From positions 1-44,824 of the IMG/VR virus record IMGVR_UViG_2778261573_000004: a stretch of 44,824 bases of DNA; one strand, written 5' to 3'. A model generated the notes under the pieces. That model had not been told where the DNA came from and ran no database searches. It saw only the letters and a list, made by a program, of their open reading frames with translations. A program made the position numbers and the translations under genes. This document shows positions 6,737 to 29,092 of this stretch, piece by piece. This DNA is from a virus (Duplodnaviria; Heunggongvirae; Uroviricota; Caudoviricetes). The stretch's first letter is position 1; each line of letters opens with the position of its first letter.

Positions 6737-8136
6737 TGCCTCAGTACCTTCATGGTTGTCGGCATAAACGCCGGATGCGGTACGCGCGCTTCCTGTACCA
6801 GTTCATCTGCACGGGTGGCATCCTGGTATAATCGGTTTGCCAGCGTCAGCGCCGGAAGCGGCTGAGCGGTAGTAACCTGCAGAAGCTCGCTCAGACCAGA
6901 AGCACGCTCACTCATCGTAGAAAGGAATGCCGATCTGACGGCGAGAAGCGCGTTATACATATCATCGTCCGCGCGGTCTCCAGCCAGAACCAGCGCCGTA
7001 TCAAGTTGCACAGAAACTCGTTGAGTTAACTCTTCTGCCTCGTCTGTACTGGCTGGTCTGGAGTCCGCAGCGGCACTGGTCATGGCACCAGTACATAGCA
7101 CAACAATCAGCGTGTTCATGGTCGCCGAAATCGCTTTGCTGCTGTCGGACTGCTGGTACTCCGTGCTGATTGAATTAGCCAGTTTTTCCAGCGCTGTGAT
7201 TCGGTCATTAACGCTGCCGGCGCTGTTAAGAATTGCGTTTACCACGTCGGCGACGCCCTGGACAAACTCATCAGGTGTGTTGGAGCTGCTAAGCTGGCTC
7301 GACCTGTCGGTAACATTTTTCCGGTCCATTACCGACTGGGCTGTTACCTTGTCAGCCAGTGCTCTCTCATCATCCACATCAGCAACTGACGATTTGCCAG
7401 CAACAGCAGAGGAACTACCGCCCACAGAGCCTTTACTGTAACGTCCGTACCGGGTATTCCCGAACGTGGAGTTCAGGACATTGCTGAGATTCGTGACCTG
7501 ACTGATGGTGCTGTCAACCATGTTAGTCCAGAACGTGACCGTGCCTCTGATGGTGTTTATAGCCTGTGTGACACCGCGGATTTCACTCTTAACTCTGGCA
7601 ATCGTGCTCAGCACAGCAGTGCTGACCAGTTTCAGATAGTTGGTTTTCACCGTGGCGCCTGCAACGGTACTGCCCGTGACAGCAAACACTTTAAGCCCTG
7701 ATTCAATTGCCATCAGGGTAAATTCAAATACTCGCCCGTTCTCCATCGAACCGGAAATACGCAAACCATTCTCAGGGATGGAAACCGTTAATTCGCCCAG
7801 TGTCGGATGGACAAGCGTACCGCTACCTTTTTGTTCACAGGCTTCAATCAGTGACTGGCGCTGCGTGATAGCATCGCCGCCGCCGTAAACCTGGCTGTTC
7901 TGGATCAAGAAACCGCGAATAACAAATCGCCGTGTTGCCCGCCCGATATCCTCTATCCAGGCTGTATCACGGTAGGGATATTCATGTACCGCCTGACGTC
8001 GGCCGTGGCTCCCTTCCTCAGCAACAATTGCAAATGGCACACCTCTGAATGAGCTGGGCCGTAACTGCCCCTGCCAGTCATCGCTGGTATCTCCCCCCAA
8101 AAGAGAAGTTATTGCGTCCTGGATAATTGACGGCAT
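6733..8136 (-). CDS. DNA circulation protein (Mu N/gp43-like)
   Basis: 467 aa; start ATG 8136-8134 with RBS GGAGG 4 nt upstream (the ORF track begins one codon earlier at GTG); position after the tape measure gene as in Mu. Confidence 0.7.
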   Translation of the reverse strand: MPSIIQDAITSLLGGDTSDDWQGQLRPSSFRGVPFAIVAEEGSHGRRQAVHEYPYRDTAWIEDIGRATRRFVIRGFLIQNSQVYGGGDAITQRQSLIEACEQKGSGTLVHPTLGELTVSIPENGLRISGSMENGRVFEFTLMAIESGLKVFAVTGSTVAGATVKTNYLKLVSTAVLSTIARVKSEIRGVTQAINTIRGTVTFWTNMVDSTISQVTNLSNVLNSTFGNTRYGRYSKGSVGGSSSAVAGKSSVADVDDERALADKVTAQSVMDRKNVTDRSSQLSSSNTPDEFVQGVADVVNAILNSAGSVNDRITALEKLANSISTEYQQSDSSKAISATMNTLIVVLCTGAMTSAAADSRPASTDEAEELTQRVSVQLDTALVLAGDRADDDMYNALLAVRSAFLSTMSERASGLSELLQVTTAQPLPALTLANRLYQDATRADELVQEARVPHPAFMPTTMKVLRQ

Positions 8137-19107: not shown

Positions 19108-21237
19108 TTATTTCGGCAGGAGTTGCGATATTCGCTTACGTTTGACCGGCGCTGGTTCTTCAATAACCGCACCCGGCAGCTCGTAATTGATTTTTTCTTC
19201 CTGTCCAACTGGCGCTGGCAGGAACTTATCCGGATCGGCTTCGAGGTTGGCGGCCCGGACGTTGAGTTTTAACCCCATATGTTTGAGACCGCACAGCGCG
19301 GCATAGCTGTAAACGAGGCAGTCAAGCGCTTCGTTAGCTCGTCCTGGTATTGCTTCCCAGATACTGTACCGCTGCCCGGAAATGACTTTGTAAACCAGTC
19401 GCTCCGCCAGCAGCTGATTGAAGTACCCGAGATCGCGATCGTCAGGAAAATGCATATAACCCGCAGCGGCGGCGCCAGGTTTGGGTGGCTCAAGATGCAG
19501 GCGACCGCGTATCACGTCTTTCGCTGAGTTAACCCCCAGAATGACAGGGCGGAAACTGGCTTTGCTTTTCGATGATGGTCGTTTGGTCGGCCAGACAGGA
19601 TTGCGTTTGCCTCCCTGTGCAGACTCCCCCTTAATTGCCCAGACACGACGGCCAAGACGCTCTTTGGCGAATTCGTATACCTTCTGCGTATGGTGGCCGC
19701 CGGAGTCCATGCACGTTGCCATGATATTCAGGCCGCGCCCGTCACCACGTCGCCAGATCTGTTTCAGGTATGCATCCAGTCGCTTCCAGGGTTCTTCCGT
19801 CTCAAGGTCACCATAAATAACGTCATGCGCGACCGACCACGATTCTTCATCTCTCCCCCAGCCGGTGATCGTAATTTCGAAGCGATCGTCCTGGGTATCA
19901 ACTCCAGCTGTTAACAATGCCACCCCGTCCGGAACGACGGCCGGAAATATTTCCCGGCGCGCCAGCAGAACATCAACAGGGAGCTGTTTCCCATGATTAG
20001 GTCGGTGCGGAAGCCCCATCTGGGTATTCCACCACGCCTGTTCCTTATCCGGATCGCCCTTCGCATCGATATATTTTTTCGCAATATCCGACGGCTTATC
20101 TTTTTGCCAGGGGCTGAAAAGCTTGGATGCCTGGTACCCCGCGTGGTGGTTATCGACTGCCTCCTTTCCACAGGAGGGGCAGATTGCGCGATAGACCGCA
20201 TGCCGTTCCGACTCTGACCATTGCCAGACCTTTTCAACGCTGCCCTCGTCTGCCGCCCGCCAGGCAAGGTCATAATCCATCAGCGGTGAGTGCCGCTCCC
20301 CGCAGCACTCAAATGGGCGCGTCTGATGCCATCGAATAGTGTGCAGAGCTCTGAGGCGCTGTCCTTCGGACCAGCCACTACCACAGCATTCGCAATAGAG
20401 CATCGCCGATTTAGTCAGGTGTTTATCTCCCTCTTTCGGCCACTGAACGTGTTTGAAAAAGTCGGGGAACTGGCGGTGGCCACAGTGCGGGCAAACCACA
20501 GATGCCCGGCGCTGATCGGAGTCGGCGTAGCTGTCAGCAATGCGGCTCTCATCCTCCACCGTCGGCGAACAGGCGCGTACAGACAGCCAGGTCAGGCCAA
20601 ATGTCGCTGTACGCTCTTCGGCCAGCGCAATTGGATCGCCTTCGCGGGTTATCGGGTACTTGTCCACTTCATCCGCCAGCAGGACACGAATCGGACGACG
20701 CGCAAGGTTATCAGGGCTACCAGCACCCGCCAGCGCCAGAAATCCGCCAGTGAATGCCTTGTAAAGAATGGTTTCTTTCGAGCTTTTCTGTTTCGAATCA
20801 CCGATGATTTTACGCAGTACCGGTGTCACCCTTACCAGCGGGCTAATACGCTCTTTCGAAAACTGTTCAGCGGCTTCTTCTTTCGGCTGCAGCAGCAGTA
20901 TCGGACAAGGATCGAGGTGGGCAAAATAGCCAAAAAGGTTTTCCAGCAGTGCTGTCTTCATCAACTGGGTACAGCACATTACAGTGATGATATGAACCCC
21001 GGACTCCGTCGCGGCAAGCATCGGTCCGCGGGCAATTTCTACCGTCGATGTTTCCCAGTTTCCCGAAGTGCTCCCAGCCTCTTTTGCCAGCTTACGATAG
21101 TCATCTGCCCACTGCGGCACACTGATACGCGGCGGGGGTGTCCAGCCTTTGCGGACGCTTAATTCAAGACGCTCAATCTTCTGCCGGGTTAAACTCTGGC
21201 TCTCCGAGGACTGAGATGTGTTTGTGGACATGTTCAA
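19108..21237 (-). CDS. Terminase large subunit, lambda gpA family
   Basis: 709 aa; ATPase and nuclease regions typical of gpA; overlaps the small subunit gene. Confidence 0.95.
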   Translation of the reverse strand: MNMSTNTSQSSESQSLTRQKIERLELSVRKGWTPPPRISVPQWADDYRKLAKEAGSTSGNWETSTVEIARGPMLAATESGVHIITVMCCTQLMKTALLENLFGYFAHLDPCPILLLQPKEEAAEQFSKERISPLVRVTPVLRKIIGDSKQKSSKETILYKAFTGGFLALAGAGSPDNLARRPIRVLLADEVDKYPITREGDPIALAEERTATFGLTWLSVRACSPTVEDESRIADSYADSDQRRASVVCPHCGHRQFPDFFKHVQWPKEGDKHLTKSAMLYCECCGSGWSEGQRLRALHTIRWHQTRPFECCGERHSPLMDYDLAWRAADEGSVEKVWQWSESERHAVYRAICPSCGKEAVDNHHAGYQASKLFSPWQKDKPSDIAKKYIDAKGDPDKEQAWWNTQMGLPHRPNHGKQLPVDVLLARREIFPAVVPDGVALLTAGVDTQDDRFEITITGWGRDEESWSVAHDVIYGDLETEEPWKRLDAYLKQIWRRGDGRGLNIMATCMDSGGHHTQKVYEFAKERLGRRVWAIKGESAQGGKRNPVWPTKRPSSKSKASFRPVILGVNSAKDVIRGRLHLEPPKPGAAAAGYMHFPDDRDLGYFNQLLAERLVYKVISGQRYSIWEAIPGRANEALDCLVYSYAALCGLKHMGLKLNVRAANLEADPDKFLPAPVGQEEKINYELPGAVIEEPAPVKRKRISQLLPK

Positions 21238-21742
21238 TCAGCACCTCTGTCATCCTGTCCGCCGGTACATCCAGATCAGCAGCCATTAGCGGCGCCACCC
21301 TGGACGGCCAGTTAAGCCAGGCATCACGCTGTTGGCGAAAGGCGTTGAATAAAACCTCCTCGGCTGCTGTCAGCTCAATAAGCTGGCCGCTGTCTTTTTC
21401 ATACTGCAGCTTTGCCTGCAGGGCCATGTAATTCTCGCGGATACGTCCCGCTTCCTCTCTCGAAAGATCTGCCCCTTCAGTGAGCATTATCTGGCGGACA
21501 GTTTTATTGATTTCATCACCGTCATCATCGTTATCGCTAACGACGGGAGTTTTCTTTTTCTTCGCGTTCGAGGCGCGCGGGTCTTTGCCATCGCGGTTTT
21601 TCTTCAATGCCGCATCGCTGGCCTCTACGTCAATCAGGTCTCCGTCCATCACAATGAAGCGCCCGGCTTTAATCCACCGGCCAATTGTTTTGCGATCCAC
21701 ACCTGAATGTTGTGCGTACTGACTCTGGTTCATCGTGGTCAT
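21173..21742 (-). CDS. Terminase small subunit, Nu1-like
   Basis: 189 aa; N-terminal HTH-like segment (QSQYAQHSGVDRKTIGRWIKAG); its 3-prime end overlaps gpA and its start sits inside the cos-like repeat cluster. Confidence 0.8.
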   Translation of the reverse strand: MTTMNQSQYAQHSGVDRKTIGRWIKAGRFIVMDGDLIDVEASDAALKKNRDGKDPRASNAKKKKTPVVSDNDDDGDEINKTVRQIMLTEGADLSREEAGRIRENYMALQAKLQYEKDSGQLIELTAAEEVLFNAFRQQRDAWLNWPSRVAPLMAADLDVPADRMTEVLIEHVHKHISVLGEPEFNPAED

Positions 21743-21890
21743 GGGACATCACCTGGGACATTTTCTGGGGTGGGACATTCGCCTGGGACATTTTTGCCAT
21801 GTCCCACCAGAATGTCCCACTGGAATAAACTGGAATAGCCAGAGCTGGCGAGGTGTCCGTAATGATCGCCAGAGGTGGGACATGGGACAC
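21743..21890. repeat. Cluster of GGGACAT / ATGTCCC motifs (cosB-like terminase small-subunit binding elements)
   Basis: Eight copies in about 150 bp: GGGACAT at 21743, 21755, 21772, 21785 and 21877; ATGTCCC at 21799 and 21812; variant GGGACAC at 21884. Lies directly upstream of and overlapping the Nu1-like start. Confidence 0.6.
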
Positions 21891-22032
21891 AAATCTGAAA
21901 GTTGTAGCTAGGAAAACACCGCGGCGCGCAATGCCCGTACCTTACAAAAGTCTCAGGAAGGACCCATTTTTTTAATGGCTTCGACCATTCGCTCCGACTA
22001 TGATTATTCCTATTCAATACAAGGAGAATGTA

Positions 22033-22536
22033 ATGGGTAACAATATAATCAAAATAACTTTCGTAGCCGCAGTGCTGGCATCACCAATTGCTCATGCCCA
22101 GTGGGTAACTAATACTGAAGATGACCTTTTCTCTGGTGGTAAGAAAGCAATGATGCTTGGCGAGGTTTCATCCGACAATGGCGCCATTGTGTTTGACTGC
22201 ACTAAAGAAAAGCTATCGGCGGCATACGTTGAAATGGATAAAAGCACCGAATCACTATCAGAGGTACCAATGGACCTGATAATGAAGGTCGACGGGAATA
22301 CCGCAGTGAAGCTCGATGCTACCCTTTCAAGACGTAATGTTCAGAGCCTCCAGATTCAATCGGATGACGCGGACCAACTAAAAACAGTGCTTAAGCAGCT
22401 TCAGGGGGCGAAATCCAAAGTGTTAGTTGGTGTGCAAACAAAGGATGGCGGAAACCAGCATTCCATGTCAGCCAATGTTTCTGGATCGACAACTGCAGTA
22501 AACAGCTTCATAAAAGCTTGCGAAATTAACTTATAA
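22033..22536 (+). CDS. Secreted/periplasmic protein of unknown function (opposite-strand moron)
   Basis: RBS AAGGAGA 5 nt before ATG 22033; N-terminus MGNNIIKITFVAAVLASPIAHAQ is a classical signal peptide (AHA-Q cleavage); convergent with all flanking phage genes. Confidence 0.6.
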   Translation: MGNNIIKITFVAAVLASPIAHAQWVTNTEDDLFSGGKKAMMLGEVSSDNGAIVFDCTKEKLSAAYVEMDKSTESLSEVPMDLIMKVDGNTAVKLDATLSRRNVQSLQIQSDDADQLKTVLKQLQGAKSKVLVGVQTKDGGNQHSMSANVSGSTTAVNSFIKACEINL

Positions 22537-22546
22537 GTTACTGCTT

Positions 22547-23197
22547 TTATTTTGCCGTCCTGATGGCTTCTGCTATCGCCTGATTTAAAGCAGACGGTAG
22601 CAGTGCGTTCGCCATGGTACGGGCCCTATCCATATACCCCAGCACTGGAGTCACAGGTAGCGCATCACCAAACCGGATCAAAAGCTTTGGAGAACGCTGT
22701 TTGCGTTTCGGTCTTCGCGTCCCGTTAGCGGAACGTTTGGCCCGTCGCTTCTTAGCTTTCATCGGCTTCTTACGCTGCCAGACAGCGTTAACGCCATCAA
22801 CCTCACCTACGAATACATTTTCCTTTGCTTTAAGCTGTGAGAGCTTATTACGCGGCAGGTTGCCGTATTTATTAAGCTTTATGTCTTTCGGGTTAAGCAA
22901 AGCACTTCCATTAAGCTTGTGCTCTCCGCCGAACTCGAAGGGTTCAAGGTAACCAGCAGCAGTATCACGAACAAACACCTTCGCACGAAGGCTGTTTTTC
23001 CTGGCACCAACTGACCCAACCGATTTAACTGTAAAAGGTGTTGGATTATCCAGATTCCGCTCAAATGCTGTTTTTTGGGCCGCTTCTATCTGGCGAACCA
23101 CTTTAGTCATAGCCTGGGCAGTCGCAAACGGTATTTGCTTCTGCAGCTGTCTTAACTGACTGGAAAGGTCCTTAAGCGTTGCCATATCATTGACCAC
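22547..23197 (-). CDS. Hypothetical phage protein with Lys/Arg-rich C-terminal region
   Basis: 216 aa ORF preceded by the terminator/promoter-like region at 23200-23262; no recognisable family. Confidence 0.5.
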   Translation of the reverse strand: MVNDMATLKDLSSQLRQLQKQIPFATAQAMTKVVRQIEAAQKTAFERNLDNPTPFTVKSVGSVGARKNSLRAKVFVRDTAAGYLEPFEFGGEHKLNGSALLNPKDIKLNKYGNLPRNKLSQLKAKENVFVGEVDGVNAVWQRKKPMKAKKRRAKRSANGTRRPKRKQRSPKLLIRFGDALPVTPVLGYMDRARTMANALLPSALNQAIAEAIRTAK

Positions 23198-23239
23198 CTA
23201 GTTACAGTAATTAAGATCAGTTTGCTCATAAAGTTGACA

Positions 23240-23265
23240 ATAAAAAACCGCCCGTAGGCGGTTAG
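23240..23265 (-). terminator. Rho-independent terminator
   Basis: Minus-strand RNA AACCGCCUACGGGCGGUU followed by UUUUAUU; overlaps the stop codon of the 23262-23666 gene. Confidence 0.65.
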
Positions 23266-23666
23266 TCGAACATTTTATCAAGTTGCTTAGCTAGAGCTCG
23301 GTTAAACAGCTCCTTCGAAACTGTCATCAGCGTGCCCATACTGGCATCTTTGAATCCGGTTTTTAATGTTGCCCAAACCTCTTTGTTACGGAGAGCATCC
23401 AAGAAGTCATGCCCCATCGCGGTCAATCGCAAGGGCATTACAGCCCAGTGAGTCATTCCGTCTAAAGACTGAATAGCACCAAAGCCGGGCTCTCCATCAC
23501 TCCTGATAATCAGCCCTCTATCCTCAAGCAAACGCATATGAAACACAAATGTGTCAGTTTCACAATTGAACCCTAAATCATTTAATCGAATAATATCGGT
23601 ATCAGGTGAATCCGATGCCTCGAAAGCCTCGAGCAAACCTTTAAGGTATTCTTGATCTATTTGCAT
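23262..23666 (-). CDS. Hypothetical protein (possibly DUF2513-like)
   Basis: 134 aa, own terminator downstream; the family name is a weak recollection and is not verified. Confidence 0.45.
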   Translation of the reverse strand: MQIDQEYLKGLLEAFEASDSPDTDIIRLNDLGFNCETDTFVFHMRLLEDRGLIIRSDGEPGFGAIQSLDGMTHWAVMPLRLTAMGHDFLDALRNKEVWATLKTGFKDASMGTLMTVSKELFNRALAKQLDKMFD

Positions 23667-23698
23667 AACCCCTCCGTATGTAAAAGGTTAATTTAACA

Positions 23699-24169
23699 TC
23701 AATTTAAGCACTGCTCTTTGATGTATTCCTGCAAATATCCAACCTGTTTCGTCACTGTGACGATTCGCTCTCTGAGGGTGAAATAATCCCGTTCAGCGGA
23801 GTCAGTAAGTCGGGGGCCGGTAACATCGCCCAGGCCGCCGGTGCTGGTCGTTCCGTTCGCGGGACAGTTTGCGTTGAGCTGCAGCCGCTTACGGCCAGCA
23901 ATGACATCGCTATGCAGACGCTCAATGGTTTCTTTCGCATCAGCCAGTTCTCCGGTGTATTTGGCATCCAGTGCAGCGACATCACGCTGGCGCACCTTCA
24001 TGTCATCGATGGTATTTTTCGCAAGGCTGAGATTCTCAATTGCCTTGTCGCGCTGGTCTTTGTAGGTGATGGCGTTGTCGCGGTAGTGGTTAACGAAGAA
24101 CGCCAGCACGCCGATTACCGACACCACAATCAGTTGCAGCCAGTAACGCTTAACCAGCGCGCCAATCAT
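23699..24169 (-). CDS. i-spanin Rz (lysis cassette B)
   Basis: 156 aa with N-terminal TM helix (LQLIVVSVIGVLAFFV) and coiled-coil periplasmic domain; 4-nt overlap with the endolysin gene. Confidence 0.8.
   Translation of the reverse strand: MIGALVKRYWLQLIVVSVIGVLAFFVNHYRDNAITYKDQRDKAIENLSLAKNTIDDMKVRQRDVAALDAKYTGELADAKETIERLHSDVIAGRKRLQLNANCPANGTTSTGGLGDVTGPRLTDSAERDYFTLRERIVTVTKQVGYLQEYIKEQCLN
23752..23940 (-). CDS. o-spanin Rz1 (embedded in Rz, +1 frame)
   Basis: MRKKPLSVCIAMSLLAVSGCSS has signal peptide and lipobox LAVSGC; Pro-rich mature part; entirely embedded within the Rz ORF. Confidence 0.75.
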   Translation of the reverse strand: MRKKPLSVCIAMSLLAVSGCSSTQTVPRTERPAPAAWAMLPAPDLLTPLNGIISPSESESSQ

Positions 24170-24606
24170 GACAGGAACAGAGCCCGCTCTGCCTCCCGCC
24201 GACGTGTCAGCCCATTCAGCACCTTCCCACCAGCTTTATTCCAGCGCAGGAACTCATCGGCTGCACCAGCGTAATCTCCGGCGTTGAGTTTTCGCAGGAG
24301 AGTCGATGTCGACAATGACCGCGCACCGAGGTTATACGTGAACGACACCAGGGCATCGAATTGCCCCTGAGTCAGGCCAACTTTAACCAGTCGTGACACG
24401 TCACTTTCGTAACTGACCATTCCTGTCTTCAGCAGGCGTTCTGCCGTTTCCTGCTTAATTGTCATCCCGGCACGGATTGGTTTCCCGTCGACGGGCTGAG
24501 TCCAGCCATAACCGATCGTCCAAACGCCGACGCTGTCCTGATAGGCAGTGAGCTTGCAACCTTCGAACTCTTTGATCAGGGCAATGCCTTTATCACTGGT
24601 TTGCAT
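24166..24606 (-). CDS. Endolysin, phage lysozyme (GH24, T4/P22-type)
   Basis: 146 aa; MQTSDKGIALIKEFEGCKLTAYQDSVGVWTIGYG shows the lysozyme E...D...T catalytic spacing. Confidence 0.9.
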   Translation of the reverse strand: MQTSDKGIALIKEFEGCKLTAYQDSVGVWTIGYGWTQPVDGKPIRAGMTIKQETAERLLKTGMVSYESDVSRLVKVGLTQGQFDALVSFTYNLGARSLSTSTLLRKLNAGDYAGAADEFLRWNKAGGKVLNGLTRRREAERALFLS

Positions 24607-24910
24607 TCTTCATCCCCGTCAAGCGTTCCCAGAAATAGGTCAGAGCCACTGAACCCATCGCCCCGCTAATGCCGGACGTGACAAGGATCATGTGAAAACT
24701 CAACCCACTCTCCACGCTTATCAACCCGCCAATCAAACCGGTAAAGCCGGAGACAGCGATCTGTGCCAGCGCGTTTATCCAGCTCCATGTCGCTTTATTC
24801 TGCTTTACGTCGATCAGGTAGCGAACTAAACCGCCCCAGCATGCAATGCCGAGCAGGACTAACCAGGACAGGCCTACAATTTTGTGGTCGTCATTCATAC
24901 GCTTTGCCAT
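24593..24910 (-). CDS. Holin (lysis cassette B)
   Basis: Start at MAKRMNDD (ATG 24910-24908); multiple TM helices; overlaps the endolysin start. The longer ORF to 25102 is rejected because it runs through the terminators. Confidence 0.7.
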   Translation of the reverse strand: MAKRMNDDHKIVGLSWLVLLGIACWGGLVRYLIDVKQNKATWSWINALAQIAVSGFTGLIGGLISVESGLSFHMILVTSGISGAMGSVALTYFWERLTGMKNANQ

Positions 24911-24980
24911 ATCACCTCCGAAGGAACGGGGTGCTGTTTGTGTAGAGTGGAAGGATGCCAGGAAACAACGACCGGACATC

Positions 24981-25009
24981 GCAAATAAAAAAGCCAGCGA
25001 CAGGCTGGC
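24981..25009 (-). terminator. Rho-independent terminator (second of a tandem pair)
   Basis: Minus-strand RNA GCCAGCCUGUCGCUGGC (perfect 6-bp stem) followed by UUUUUUAUUUGC; embedded in a 16-bp direct repeat CGCAAATAAAAAAGCC also found at 25081-25096. Confidence 0.7.
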
Positions 25010-25081
25010 AATGTGAGGGTAAGGCAATGTCGGCTCTCTGGCCGAAGGGTCCCAGGTAGTGGGTTCTGTGTGCTGCGTACC

Positions 25082-25114
25082 GCAAATAAAAAAGCCCCGC
25101 ATAGGCGAGGCTGG
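25082..25114 (-). terminator. Rho-independent terminator (first of a tandem pair), after the peptidase gene
   Basis: Minus-strand RNA GCCUCGCCUAUGCGGGGC (7-bp stem, one mismatch) followed by UUUUUUAUUUGC. Confidence 0.6.
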
Positions 25115-25130
25115 AATCAGACAGGGGGGA

Positions 25131-26033
25131 TTAAGACTGGATATTCCAAATCATTGCGTTACCGTTATGATTTTCAATGATTTTTGCCAGTGGTGCTCCA
25201 CCAAAAGAATGCATGTAGCTGTGATGTATAGTCAAAACCAAATCTTGAAGTACTTGATCACTTTCAAGTTCGGTAACATTCAACCCAATTTTCTGCGCCT
25301 TATCAAAATGAATATGACGCGAGTGGGTATAGGTTGTGTGATGGTTGTTTAACTCTGAACAAACATGTGTTGCTTTTGATTCTGCCTCAGGATCATTATC
25401 AAACATGCCTGTCATAAGCCAATGCTTAACAATCTCATTTGCCCATTTGATTGCTTTCTCACACTCGCCGATGATCGTCGGGTTTAGCTTTTGAAGAATG
25501 AACTGCCACATCTGAACAGCTGCGGGATTTTGAAAAATTTCCGTCTGCGCACGATTCCATTCTTCAATGATGGCATGGGTGGAGAAACCGTTGAACTGAG
25601 GATCAATTGGGCCAATGTTGGACTGTTTACCCATGATGATTTCATTGGCACAACATGCAAGCATAGTTCCGCAGGACATTGAAATCATAGGAACAATTGC
25701 TCTGATGTTAGTTCCAAACTTCGACCTTAAGTAATGCCCGATTGATTCCAAAGCGGCAATATCACCACCTGGAGTATGAAGTATCAAATCCAACCCTTTT
25801 GATACATCTAAACCATTGATGGCTGTCATCAACCCGTTCTTATCATCATCAGTCATCTGAGTAAGATGGCGTACTTCTGCACCACCATGCTGTAACCACC
25901 CTGAGTAATATGTGATTACATTTCTTCCAGTATGATTCGAAAGTTGAGATAAGTATTTACGGCGAACCTCATCCATAGGACTTTTATGGGCGAGAGCCGT
26001 TATCTCGCCCAGTACGTCGCTCCAATTAGGCAT
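25131..26033 (-). CDS. ClpP/S49-fold serine peptidase (resembles SDH-family Clp-fold proteinases), cargo gene
   Basis: 300 aa; LILHTPGGDIAALESIGHYL and MISMSCGTMLACCANE resemble the PGG and nucleophile-Ser motifs of ClpP/SppA-fold peptidases; AT-rich codon usage unlike flanking genes; unrelated in sequence to the prohead protease at 16336-17202. Confidence 0.55.
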   Translation of the reverse strand: MPNWSDVLGEITALAHKSPMDEVRRKYLSQLSNHTGRNVITYYSGWLQHGGAEVRHLTQMTDDDKNGLMTAINGLDVSKGLDLILHTPGGDIAALESIGHYLRSKFGTNIRAIVPMISMSCGTMLACCANEIIMGKQSNIGPIDPQFNGFSTHAIIEEWNRAQTEIFQNPAAVQMWQFILQKLNPTIIGECEKAIKWANEIVKHWLMTGMFDNDPEAESKATHVCSELNNHHTTYTHSRHIHFDKAQKIGLNVTELESDQVLQDLVLTIHHSYMHSFGGAPLAKIIENHNGNAMIWNIQS

Positions 26034-26036
26034 AAA

Positions 26037-26237
26037 TCAGTACGTGTAAAGTTGATGACTTGTAGTTTGGTTTTGCTTCGATTGTGTAGCGGTACCTTGT
26101 GAGTACCAAACACCTGTGTTTCCACTCGTACTAGTTTGCTGTGCCATTACACGAGAAGCGAAGTTGTTAACAGTTTCACCAGTCAACATTTCTGCCGGTT
26201 TGATATTGTAAACATCGTAGAACTCAGCTGGGGTCAT
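26037..26237 (-). CDS. Small hydrophilic protein of unknown function, co-transcribed with the peptidase
   Basis: 66 aa, Thr/Ser/Gln-rich; strong RBS AAAGGAG 8 nt before ATG 26237; stop 3 nt before the peptidase ATG. Confidence 0.45.
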   Translation of the reverse strand: MTPAEFYDVYNIKPAEMLTGETVNNFASRVMAQQTSTSGNTGVWYSQGTATQSKQNQTTSHQLYTY

Positions 26238-26320
26238 AATGATAGCTCCTTTTATAGCGCTACATATAGTGCCTGTGCCAAGGGGGACATACTATATGTG
26301 CCATTGTTGTCATATTTAAA

Positions 26321-26345
26321 TGTGCAAAAAGCCTCAAAAGAGGCT
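26321..26345 (-). terminator. Rho-independent terminator downstream of lysis cassette A
   Basis: Minus-strand RNA GCCUCUUUUGAGGC followed by UUUUUGCACAUUU. Confidence 0.55.
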
Positions 26346-26607
26346 TGAAAAAGATGCAAAAATACTATCTATGACGTGACTATAGCTACTTACCCACAGT
26401 TTATACAAGCCAAAAATGCTAAATTCAGATAATCCTATTCGCTGAAAAACTACACAAAAGCTACGTTCATCTTGTCATTAGATAACGTCAGTAACTTTCA
26501 CTGGATCTAAGCCATTGGTGAAAAAGCTAATTGCATGATGAAGCACTGTAATGTAGCAGTTGAGGTTGTTAAATGAGAATCACCCTAACAATGTCAACGG
26601 ACATTAT

Positions 26608-27144
26608 TCATTTTCGTAACTTCTCAATCTCTCGTATACCCGCCAGGTTATTGTTGCCCTTCTCAATAACAGCCAGCAAAGGTTCAATCCAGAGGACGGC
26701 CTGGCAATACGTCATTGAGCTGGCGGCAGCGGTACTATCATCGGTTGCGTTAGTGTTCCCGGTATCGGGGTGCATTGCGCTGGCACGTAAACGGTACGCG
26801 TATTTGAGCAGCCCACCAGCGACATCAGCAGGAACAGGCAGATCACAGGTCTTTTCACGTCGGAGAATCTCCCGGTATTCGATGACAGTTTTCTCAGTAC
26901 CGGCATCGATCAGCGAGTTAAGGCGGTTGGCGTTCTCTGCTATCTGGTTAAACCGATTGAAGTTGAAAGCCTGTGTAGTTATCACCGTCGCCTGCAGCGC
27001 GTTATCATTACGTAATACCCGATTCTCACTCTGTTCTGTTTCAAGAGCTGAGCGGCTACGAACCAGTAATACGCTAAGCACTGCAATAATGATTACGACA
27101 GCCACCAGCAGAACCGCAACAATCGTAATTTTTCTGGGTTTCAT
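26608..27144 (-). CDS. i-spanin Rz-like (lysis cassette A)
   Basis: 178 aa with N-terminal TM helix (ITIVAVLLVAVVIIIAVLSVLLV) and periplasmic coiled-coil; follows the SAR endolysin with ATGA overlap. Confidence 0.7.
   Translation of the reverse strand: MKPRKITIVAVLLVAVVIIIAVLSVLLVRSRSALETEQSENRVLRNDNALQATVITTQAFNFNRFNQIAENANRLNSLIDAGTEKTVIEYREILRREKTCDLPVPADVAGGLLKYAYRLRASAMHPDTGNTNATDDSTAAASSMTYCQAVLWIEPLLAVIEKGNNNLAGIREIEKLRK
26712..26906 (-). CDS. o-spanin Rz1-like (embedded in Rz)
   Basis: Embedded +1-frame ORF with lipobox LVGCS and Pro-rich C-terminus; the true start may be the internal GTG at 26858. Confidence 0.5.
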   Translation of the reverse strand: MPVLRKLSSNTGRFSDVKRPVICLFLLMSLVGCSNTRTVYVPAQCTPIPGTLTQPMIVPLPPAQ

Positions 27145-27716
27145 CAGAATACCCCCGGAACTGATACCGGAATGCCAGGGTTAAGCGGCCCGAGTCCATC
27201 CCCCAGAACCTGAGGTTTCTCTGCCCACAGGCAAACTTCACGCTCAATCTCACGCCTCGTGATTAAACCCTTCCACTGTTTGTCACCAGCATAGATCCAG
27301 CGCCGCAGTTGTTCGCATGCGCCTTTCGAATCACCCTGGTTGATTTTTCGTAACAGTGTGGAGGTTTTGAAGTTTCCCGCGCCTACGTTATACGCAAATG
27401 AGTACAGCGCCCCTCTCATCGTTTCGGGGATCGGAGCATTGATATATGGGTTAATCTGTCGGGCGACAATATTCAGGTCTTTATCCAGCAGCGCCTGGCA
27501 CTCTGCTTTGGTGTAGGTCTTGCCGAGGATAATATCTTTACCAGTATGGCCCCAGCATACAGTCCACACTCCAACAACATCCCGATAAGGCTGATAGCGT
27601 ACACCTTCAAGGCCATCATTACCCGTTGGGCCAGTAATCAACGCCGCAGCGATAGCAATAGCGCCAGCGGGTATCGCTGCAATAACGCTATTCTTCAGCT
27701 TTGGTGGCATAGCCAT
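27144..27716 (-). CDS. SAR endolysin (phage 21 R21-like lysozyme)
   Basis: N-terminal Gly/Ala-rich signal-anchor-release domain ([19 protein letters not shown]) followed by [28 protein letters not shown], matching my recollection of the phage 21 lysozyme catalytic region. Confidence 0.85.
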
Positions 27717-27966
27717 TGCGCCGATCCTCCCGTTCTTTCCAGCGGAAATACCAGTTCACTGCACAGGTAATAACAGTGCATGCGATACCGACAATAATTG
27801 CCCAGTCGCTCAGGCTTAACCCTGCAATTCTGTCGGCCAACATCCAGGACACCTCTTTTGCTGTTTTAGCTGTTTCGGCATATGCCTTCGCTGATACACC
27901 GCAGCCGGTCAGCGTGGTTCCTGTTCCATATGAAAGTCTGCTGTAAATGGTGCTCATTCTGGTCAT
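27688..27966 (-). CDS. Pinholin (S21-like) with dual-start motif
   Basis: 92 aa; N-terminus MTRM gives two in-frame starts separated by Arg (holin/antiholin arrangement); C-terminus [13 protein letters not shown] resembles the phage 21 pinholin tail. Confidence 0.75.
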
Positions 27967-28173
27967 AGCCTCACCTCCGATTTTTCGGATGGCGCTGTGT
28001 GTGTGTTTGAAAAGGGTCAGGCTTCACGGGCTGGATTTATCAACAAAGCACGTAGCGGATGATTCCCGTGAGCCTGAAATTGATGAATATGTCTGAAATA
28101 ACTAGACCATTAGTAAAACAACTCGATAAATGTGGTTAAATGAGACTACGTTCTCACAACTTAATTAGTACCA

Positions 28174-28344
28174 ATGATTATCAAGCCCTGTCCCTACTGC
28201 GGAAAGTTAATTAACCCAGAATCACTTGTGTGTAGCCACTGCCGGATAGTGAATCCTTTTGTGAAGGCCAGCAGAAGAGAAAAAGCGAAGAATGTATTAG
28301 TAATCGCTCTCGTTGCTGCTTTTTTAATTTGGATGATTCTCTGA
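28174..28344 (+). CDS. Small zinc-ribbon membrane protein (56 aa; below the ORF-track size cut-off)
   Basis: MIIKPCPYCGKLINPESLVCSHCRIVNPF...VLVIALVAAFLIWMIL: CxxC-N9-CxxC zinc ribbon plus C-terminal TM helix. No clear RBS, so confidence is low. Confidence 0.3.
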   Translation: MIIKPCPYCGKLINPESLVCSHCRIVNPFVKASRREKAKNVLVIALVAAFLIWMIL

Positions 28345-28816
28345 GTTGCCAGTTTTCAATGAAGATAATGCGGGCAAAAAAAGCCTGCTCGGACGAACAG
28401 GCATGAAAAATAACAATACCGTCAAGGAGGTGGCGCCGGGTGCCTCCCGGTGGAACAGCCCCAGCCGACTAGTTCCGCGCAAACAAACCTGGACAAAAAA
28501 GTTTGACTGGTCGCCCCTCCGCATAGGGGGATTCACCACACTAAAAATTTAACATCTGATGAAACTCGTTTCAATGCTCTACGACGATGTGACAGGGGTA
28601 TTGATGCAATGCAAATAGACCTACTCTCGGAGCAAGGATAACAACTTTTCCGTACTCTCTTCTGTAAGTTCGAAGTGGATCAATTCTTCGCCATTCTTGA
28701 GAATGTAGAGTTCTTTACTCCCTTTATCATCAGTAGTGATATCAAGGGCATAAATATCAGGCTTGCATAGCGTAATGCCGCCTGTCGTAACTAGCGTCTT
28801 ATTAACGAGGTGACTC

Positions 28817-29092
28817 ATGGGGATACTCTCCGAACTGGATTCTTTACTGGAAAAAATCCCACTGTGGAAAAGGTTAAAAACAGTACCCGACGAAGTGGAT
28901 CGTCTCAAACAGCAGGTCGCCGAGCTTGAGGCATACATCAAATCCAGCGGTGGGGAGAAATGCCCCAGATGCTCACAGATGAGCTATAGCCTTGACCGAA
29001 CCGTAGATGACCCCGATTTCATTGGGCTGGGAGTTCAGAGAGACTATTACAAATGCTCCAGCTGTGGGTACGAAACCTTTAAACAGCGCTGA
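28817..29092 (+). CDS. Coiled-coil plus C-terminal zinc-ribbon protein
   Basis: RBS GAGGTG 5 nt before ATG 28817; CPRC...CSSC zinc ribbon; followed by terminator at 29108-29142. Its start codon overlaps a divergent minus-strand ATG (28818) of a possible 65-aa ORF at 28621-28818. Confidence 0.4.
   Translation: MGILSELDSLLEKIPLWKRLKTVPDEVDRLKQQVAELEAYIKSSGGEKCPRCSQMSYSLDRTVDDPDFIGLGVQRDYYKCSSCGYETFKQR

Follow-up and report, generated by a model that had tools for sequence, protein, structure and literature searches.

The late region of a tailed phage, contained in a 44,824-nucleotide stretch of Caudoviricetes DNA (IMG/VR record IMGVR_UViG_2778261573_000004; hereafter the window), carries a two-gene cassette of about 1.5 kb on the minus strand of 24975-26607. 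The cassette joins a ClpP-fold serine protease of the SDH type to a small protein encoded just upstream of it. It is best explained as a self-contained moron, a piece of optional cargo that would bring its own expression signals and that entered a lambdoid prophage by recombination. With the SDH protease as effector and the small, coupled protein as partner, it most likely serves the lysogen as a protease-based anti-phage system, by superinfection exclusion or abortive infection, a reading in which we have somewhat more belief than doubt. We favor this accessory, anti-phage reading because of how the module is distributed, namely on mobile elements and in cargo sites. An initial annotation of the same DNA had already proposed an accessory or defence role, and judged from sequence comparison this remains the best reading of the cassette's distribution. 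Three things are added to that annotation here: a partner protein found across prokaryotes, a conserved leader, and a mosaic origin mediated by a terminator.

The spread of the cassette can be followed at several distances. From position 25087 to beyond 26620 the window is 100% identical to 42 of 5426 complete E. coli genomes, and the count becomes 80 of 5426 when diverged variants (68-82% identity) are included; all of these copies are chromosomal. Variable presence in related prophages, a point raised in the initial annotation, is borne out by individual strains. In E. coli ECCRA-119 the cassette comes after a holin-lysozyme-Rz cluster and before a KilA-N gene and the terminase genes. It is absent from E. 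coli KMi029, which has the same Q/lysis module together with the same terminase module, and from E. coli ET881, which has its head module in common with the window. Another site, between Q and the holin gene, is occupied in prophages of Enterobacter, Yersinia, Serratia, Buttiauxella, Kluyvera and Mangrovibacter and in a lambdoid prophage of E. coli Nissle 1917. The proposal that the cassette sits in the classic Q-to-lysis moron site holds for these family relatives, but the copy in the window lies downstream of a complete first lysis cassette, as in the 42 E. coli genomes with the identical copy, for which ECCRA-119 was the context examined. The Nissle 1917 variant (L105, 6994-8112) has about 70% nucleotide identity and stands between Q and a DNA methyltransferase/holin, and in a further locus (L104, 7608-8735), where the cassette stands between Q and a methyltransferase, the protease gene is split into 51 and 244 amino acids (aa), with the small open reading frame (ORF) intact. 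Further afield, the Proteus copy lies 3' of tail-fibre genes, the Pseudomonas copy adjoins prophage integrases and the Methylomonas copy adjoins a resolvase. In a Shewanella Mu-like phage the cassette stands between the late regulator C and the lysis genes, in Gordonia phage BeeGee after a minor tail gene, and in a Porphyromonas phage beside HicAB. Homologues occur in 7 of 50,697 phage records, two of which are prophage or Mu-like elements, and the three contexts inspected were all accessory. A distant blastn search for a copy on a phage-inducible chromosomal island (PICI) in E. coli gave prophage copies only, down to 68% identity, with their contexts partly inspected. These comparisons show an apparently autonomous, horizontally mobile and variably present cassette residing in cargo sites.

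Base composition also sets the cassette apart. The GC fraction of 25113-26607 is 0.407, the minimum among 867 equally long sliding windows (mean 0.519, standard deviation 0.037), and the flanking lysis cassettes have 0.507 and 0.538, in agreement with the earlier description of an AT-rich block. Deviant composition, a terminator of its own directly 3' and presence or absence between homologous flanks are among the marks of a moron, and the cassette carries each of these three. All 12 of the other cassettes examined likewise have a hairpin and T-run that follow the stop codon by no more than about 50 nt.

The two genes are closely joined. The small ORF (26037-26237, minus strand, 66 aa, from the ORF list and the sequence) is preceded by a ribosome-binding site (RBS), AAAGGAG at 26246-26252, which lies 8 nt upstream of the ATG at 26237. 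Its stop codon TGA (26039-26037) is followed by TTT and then by the protease ATG at 26033. This 3-nt gap, together with the strong RBS, stands exactly as first read, and the two genes are predicted to be translationally coupled. The second gene (25131-26033, minus strand) encodes the 300-aa protease, whose ClpP/SppA-type fold had been suspected from the motifs LILHTPGGD and MSCGTM. Both motifs are found, and the protein matches Pfam PF01972 (ClpP-like SDH-type) over residues 22-255 with 81.2 bits (cut-off 31.3, E=8.4e-23). The ClpP/crotonase fold is confirmed, and S120 of MSCGT is the predicted nucleophile. An identical E. coli protein is named 'SDH family Clp-fold serine proteinase' in RefSeq, and the PHROG match is to PHROG 11747 (function unknown). 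The score against the NCBIfam equivalog NF047768 (Clp_like_SDH) is 95.9 bits, far under the cut-off of 250, and the protease is therefore a distinct subfamily, related to that equivalog without being a member of it. The NfeD1b_N profile gives 25 bits, under its cut-off of 40. Clustering at 50% identity divides the family into 350 clusters that reach E values of 1e-30 or better. Across 27 homologues 76 columns are invariant, including S120 of MS(A/C)GT and the HTPGG motif, and further invariant residues (W176, K182, C191, H237, R239, H240, H270 and H271) fall in the helical C-terminal half. No obvious signal peptide or membrane segment was seen in either cassette protein when the sequences were inspected by eye. 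The prohead protease of the window is encoded at 16336-17202 beside the portal gene and belongs to PF01343 (Peptidase_S49). A BLASTP comparison of the two proteases is marginal (E=0.004 over 44 aa) and their Pfam families differ; as had been argued, the cassette protease is no duplicate of the prohead protease, although both are members of the ClpP/S49 superfamily. Weak profile similarity of the cassette protease to head-maturation proteases can also be detected (phrog_53, E=6e-5; NF045542, E=3e-4).

The small protein matches PHROG 25714 (E=4e-44), has no Pfam, NCBIfam or PADLOC family, and its close homologues form ten clusters only, the few named sources of which are enterobacteria. AlphaFold2, run on the 66-aa protein alone, predicts short helices at residues 3-9 and 23-36 (predicted local distance difference test, pLDDT, about 76), and residues 38-66 score below 50, forming a disordered tail rich in Ser, Thr and Gln that ends in LYTY. 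Neither Pfam scans nor this model revealed a recognisable DNA-binding fold, and Pfam scans of ten diverse small partners found no known family. The pair was surveyed in 80 genome loci from many phyla, including archaea of the Methanosarcinales. In about 70 of the 80 the protease gene is immediately preceded by an ORF of 50-100 aa, the end of which falls between -29 and +60 nt of the protease ATG. The small proteins themselves are highly divergent (median normalised score 0.09) and follow a common plan, in which an amphipathic motif at the N terminus (h..hF/Y..h.L/I) leads into a hydrophobic, strand-like segment and this into a Ser/Thr-rich tail. At least two flavours can be distinguished, one with '...P.Y.NP..FA..FKKCS....V.YS...' (enterobacterial variant 'NFASRV...VWYSQGT...LYTY') and the other with '..VF..LGL..E..R..F...'. 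Small-protein similarity correlates with protease identity (Mantel r=0.51, reached by 0 of 1000 permutations), and therefore the two genes travel and diverge as a unit.

The protease is recognisable over a very wide range. Its identity to the copy in the window is 49-84% across Proteobacteria, Firmicutes, Bacteroidota, Planctomycetota, Actinomycetota, Chloroflexota, Elusimicrobiota and Methanosarcinales. In four Methanosarcinales metagenome-assembled genomes (MAGs; L019, L024, L044 and L080) the protease is 52-56% identical to the E. coli prophage protein, and L019 and L024 have a small partner of the first type with nearly the same motif. Such archaeal copies imply a transfer between domains of life. 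Two Lachnospiraceae MAGs (L031 and L038) have no small ORF, and the DNA that precedes the protease gene there looks in translation like a tRNA gene; these copies may therefore belong to an element integrated at a tRNA. Among 135 immediate neighbours no conserved third gene was found. The commonest neighbouring family is phage integrase (8 of 135), and scattered neighbours include DNA methyltransferases, AbiEii-like AAA_21 proteins, type I restriction subunits and a BrxL.

The enterobacterial cassettes also have a leader in common. An alignment of nine diverged copies covers an upstream region of about 180 nt, all features of which are given here on the minus strand. The candidate promoter P1 (26379-26408) has a -35 element TTGTAT (26408-26403), an 18-nt spacer and a -10 element TATAGT (26384-26379), and was identified from the sequence and its positional conservation. 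Its consensus in the enterobacterial cassettes is TTG(T/A)(A/T/C)(T/A)-N17-18-(T/C)ATA(G/T)T; it had been missed by a consensus scan because its -35 matches at only 3 of 6 positions. The spacer (26385-26402) carries a conserved CTGTGG(A/G/T)TAA, an unusual sequence for a sigma-70 spacer that calls to mind a protein-binding element. Downstream of P1, two hairpins were found with RNAalifold. Hairpin 1 (26324-26346) is terminator- or attenuator-like, with a stem AAGCCTC/GAGGCTT (26346-26329) followed by a T-run, and shows compensatory changes at 4 of its 7 pairs. Hairpin 2 (26262-26299) is the inverted repeat ACATATAGT/ACTATATGT, whose 9-bp arms had been recognised in the initial annotation at about 26266-26299. 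They in fact lie at 26299-26291 and 26270-26262 around a 20-nt loop, and the hairpin ends 24 nt ahead of the start codon. Its consensus helix has 11 pairs, 3 of them changed on both sides, and includes G-U variants. Over the two helices 88.9% of cells are paired and 7 of 18 pairs have changes on both sides; none of 500 shuffles reached the observed pairing or covariation, and slid controls gave 25-55% pairing. In these nine sequences the G-U variants tip the balance slightly towards an RNA hairpin and away from a DNA operator.

The inverted repeat had been taken as part of a promoter-like region. It is more than that, being one of two covarying leader hairpins, and a better-conserved candidate promoter lies further upstream at about 26408-26379. 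A weak sigma-70-like site, P2 (TTTAAA-18-TATAGT, 26320-26291, from the consensus scan), overlaps the first arm of hairpin 2. It was rejected as the main promoter, its -10 being without conservation in the other cassettes, and has a minor chance of use. No known RNA family was found in the cassette leader by Rfam, and matches to SorY and GcvB at 25085-25278 are far under threshold. In an Enterobacter locus (L095) two copies of STnc100, the pR' leader, lie downstream of the cassette; that copy is therefore independent of pR' and must use its own promoter. The two STnc100 copies are in tandem (7203-7410 and 7437-7640), between the SDH cassette and the holin gene.

How the cassette came to lie between two lysis cassettes can be reconstructed from the two terminators. 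Both lysis cassettes seen in the initial annotation are complete by Pfam, non-homologous, and part of one late operon. The right one consists of a P21/HP1-type holin (27966-27688), a lysozyme (27716-27144) and a spanin-like ORF (27144-26608), and the left one of a LydA-type holin (24913-24593), a lysozyme (24606-24166), Rz (24169-23699) and an embedded Rz1 (23985-23752), all on the minus strand. Between the protease gene and the left cassette stand two minus-strand terminators found by the terminator scan, t1 (25083-25112, hairpin 25112-25093) and t2 (24980-25009, hairpin 25009-24993). Each ends in an exact 16-bp direct repeat, CGCAAATAAAAAAGCC, at 25081-25096 and 24980-24995; by simple arithmetic, about 0.002 such 16-mers repeated within about 100 nt are expected in 45 kb. 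The tandem terminators and their repeat are thus present as described, but they do not form a matched cassette pair. Terminator t1 is the cassette's own, and comparison identifies t2 as the second terminator of an ET881-type Q-holin leader, upstream of the LydA-type holin; the stretch from t1 to t2 comes from that leader too.

The window is 98.8% identical to the E. coli ET881 prophage over 21000-25112, where that homology ends, and in ET881 both terminators lie inside a 282-bp gap from Q to the LydA-type holin. From 25087 rightward the window is identical to the ECCRA-119 lineage, whose homology starts at 25086/25087. The two lineages overlap by 26 bp (25087-25112), ATAAAAAAGCCCCGCA..GGCGAGGCT, within t1, the loop of which is of the ECCRA-119 type in the window. 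As the lineages overlap in t1 alone, it was inside t1 that recombination joined them to form the window. The crossover at this point left t2 and another complete lysis cassette lying 3' of the first one and its cargo. An alternative in which the tandem terminators are a designed insulator of the cassette was rejected in favour of this recombination joint, given the lineage comparison and the assignment of t2 to the ET881-type leader. No complete E. coli genome has the exact arrangement, with no record covering at least 80% of 21000-29000. E. coli NCTC9040 contains a different chimera within the lysis genes, and the lysis region is a recombination hot spot.

The leader RNAs of the late operon can be read in the same comparison. 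In the window, Q (29979-29290, minus strand) is followed about 700 bp downstream by an Rfam match to STnc100 (28568-28372, minus strand, 84.5 bits). Together with a promoter-like site (28574-28546) and a terminator (28402-28383), it looks like a pR'/tR' late-leader RNA. In ET881 an Rfam isrJ match (68.7 bits; L002, 9091-9164) has the first terminator as its 3' end. This match would be the pR' leader RNA of that phage, of which the window retains the terminator only. At least two families described as Salmonella small RNAs (STnc100 and isrJ) appear to be lambdoid late-leader RNAs. Two opposite-strand ORFs in the Q-to-holin gap, at 28174-28344 (plus strand, 56 aa) and 28817-29092 (plus strand, 91 aa), resemble zinc ribbons with Pfam matches under threshold, and may be further cargo genes.

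A working model for the anti-phage reading can be outlined, in which the ClpP-fold SDH-type protease would be the effector and the small, fast-evolving protein its regulator. In the lysogen, transcription would start from the cassette's own promoter, be modulated by the two leader hairpins and end at t1. The small protein would dock on the protease by its N-terminal helices, and its strand-like, Ser/Thr-rich disordered tail would lie in the substrate groove and keep the protease quiet. Infection would then supply a competing phage protein or halt resupply of the small protein, and the freed protease would cleave phage proteins or essential host proteins. That the small protein acts as such a pseudo-substrate, or as a sacrificial 'fuse', is a tentative proposal. 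It is made because of the anatomy of the small protein, the substrate groove of the ClpP fold and a precedent for self-binding in SppA. The suggestion in the initial annotation that the protease attacks the scaffold of an incoming phage is speculative. ClpP-fold proteases bind their substrates in a groove. The title of an SppA structure (PDB 4KWB) describes the protein's own C-termini bound in its active sites. During lytic growth of this phage, Q-modified polymerase from pR' (about 28574) would read through the cassette, hairpin 1, t1 and t2 into the second lysis cassette and the head genes; reading through terminators is a normal property of Q antitermination. More broadly, the pair might be an ancient mobile immune module of bacteria and archaea with a mode of action not described before, in which a disordered pseudo-substrate senses the phage and, in enterobacteria, a two-hairpin leader gates expression. 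We regard this wider proposal as possible and more doubtful than the anti-phage role itself.

Known systems resemble the cassette in part. Classic lambdoid morons include bor of lambda, after Rz, and stx, between Q/pR' and S. The cassette is like them in its deviant base composition, its own terminator, the same two insertion sites and its variable presence among mosaic relatives; unlike them it encodes a protease pair in place of a lipoprotein or toxin, and has a conserved structured leader. With PF01972/NF047768 the cassette protease has in common a Pfam match above threshold, the ClpP fold and the conserved nucleophile Ser motif, whereas its own subfamily is marked by a length of about 300 aa, a highly conserved helical C-terminal half and the small upstream partner. 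In the NfeD (Pyrococcus 1510-N)-stomatin pair the partner is an SPFH/stomatin protein, whereas here it is a soluble protein of 50-100 aa with no Pfam match, and the cassette protease, unlike that pair, has no membrane anchor and travels on mobile cargo. Protease-based defence is a growing theme that includes Lit, ietAS, and the CHAT and Lon-SAVED proteases, and the protease IetS is subtilisin-like, not of the ClpP fold. The ietAS system (Gao_Iet) is a plasmid-stabilising toxin-antitoxin module with anti-phage activity, made up of a serine-protease toxin and an ATPase antitoxin (PMC13069673). Like the cassette it is a two-gene mobile module with a serine-protease effector, which in ietAS is held in check by the partner. 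It differs in that the partner is an ATPase and not a small disordered protein, and there is no sequence relationship.

The closest parallel may be the system 'FS_HP_SDH_sah' of DefenseFinder, a PICI-encoded anti-phage system reportedly described by Fillol-Salom et al. (Cell 2022). It consists of a hypothetical protein and an SDH_sah protein, SDH_sah being the older name of PF01972. Its two adjacent, co-oriented genes, one hypothetical and one for a PF01972 protein, have the architecture of the cassette, which lies in a lambdoid prophage and not in a PICI. Putative membership of the cassette in this system seems likely. To our knowledge no mechanism has been published for it, and we know of no ClpP-fold defence effector with a worked-out mechanism. 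Sibling names from the same study can be found in the literature, namely 'Sma' and 'HEPN-TM' (PMC12948488), and elsewhere 'FS_Sma', 'FS_HP' and 'FS_HsdR_like'. The annotated protease family is probably already represented among validated defence systems.

Several observations weigh against an anti-phage role or against parts of the model. The papers and supplements searched contained nothing on PF01972/SDH proteases in phage defence, nor the string 'SDH_sah'. PADLOC-DB v2.0.0 has no family for either cassette protein at E values up to 1, in keeping with the initial annotation, which matched the cassette to no named defence system. Enrichment of defence genes beside the module is modest, as judged from raw neighbour counts. 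The cassette lies here inside the late transcript, a position that equally suits a function benefiting the phage. In 9 of the 80 loci the protease has no recognisable small ORF, and therefore the small protein is not a universally essential antitoxin. The invariant candidate catalytic partners of S120 are K136, K182, D144, H86, H237 and H240. Docking through the N-terminal helices is conjecture, and P1 as a candidate promoter and the putative role of the hairpins are put forward from conservation.

Other explanations must be weighed against the same evidence. The pair could be an addiction module of the toxin-antitoxin type that stabilises the mobile element, with the protease as toxin, the labile small protein as antidote and any anti-phage effect secondary or absent. 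The operon of two translationally coupled genes, the small one first, fits this, as do residence on mobile elements beside toxin-antitoxin genes (HicAB), the protease toxin of ietAS, and a palindrome between promoter region and RBS as in autoregulated operons of this kind. However, the loci that keep an intact protease with no small ORF argue against it, the small protein lacks a recognisable DNA-binding fold, and the G-U variants suggest that the palindrome is an RNA hairpin and not an operator; the one locus with a frameshifted protease and an intact small ORF is compatible with either model. We consider addiction improbable, though it is the alternative to be taken most seriously. A protease that benefits the phage, made with the late genes and degrading host immunity or stress proteins in lytic growth, would explain why the window and the E. 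coli copies after Rz (e.g., ECCRA-119) lie downstream of Q and the lysis genes, and the cassette in the window is also downstream of the pR'-like site with STnc100 and hence probably read by Q-modified polymerase. Such counter-defence or host takeover is nevertheless unlikely in our estimate, since the cassette has its own terminator and leader, the Enterobacter copy is upstream of pR', copies occur beside integrases and in non-phage contexts including archaeal chromosomes, and only 7 of the 50,697 phage records hold a homologue, with the contexts inspected being prophage or accessory.

Equally unlikely, we believe, is a lysogenic-conversion or peptide-maturation module, in which the protease would process the small protein to a bioactive peptide (signal or toxin) or would remodel proteins of the host, giving a fitness trait that has nothing to do with phages. 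The small proteins do have a conserved N-terminal and a variable Ser/Thr-rich C-terminal part, like a leader and core, and the NfeD 1510-N protease, a fold match here, cleaves the product of its operon partner. Yet the neighbourhood holds no conserved gene for an exporter, a modification enzyme or immunity, and by eye neither protein shows an evident signal peptide or membrane segment; moreover, it is conflict systems that more typically spread across phyla on mobile elements. Least credible is a role in morphogenesis, with the enzyme acting as another prohead protease of this phage or in scaffold processing; the weak similarity to head-maturation proteases speaks for it. The window has its own separate S49 prohead protease, ET881 and KMi029 have the same head module with no cassette, and the module is also found away from phage structural genes; with the cassette about 8 kb from the head module and absent from sister phages, this role was rejected.

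For the anti-phage reading, the cassette offers a tractable model. It is compact, with two genes in 1.5 kb, dozens of E. coli genomes carry it at 100% identity and the probiotic strain Nissle 1917 has a variant, and comparative material is at hand in the invariant residues, the two partner flavours and the conserved leader. If the immune-module reading is true, then even with FS_HP_SDH_sah as the same family there would still be novelty in the mechanism and its trigger, in what the partner does and in the leader. The locus also shows how short shared terminators can act as crossover points in lambdoid phages, shuffling cargo and even duplicating whole lysis cassettes.

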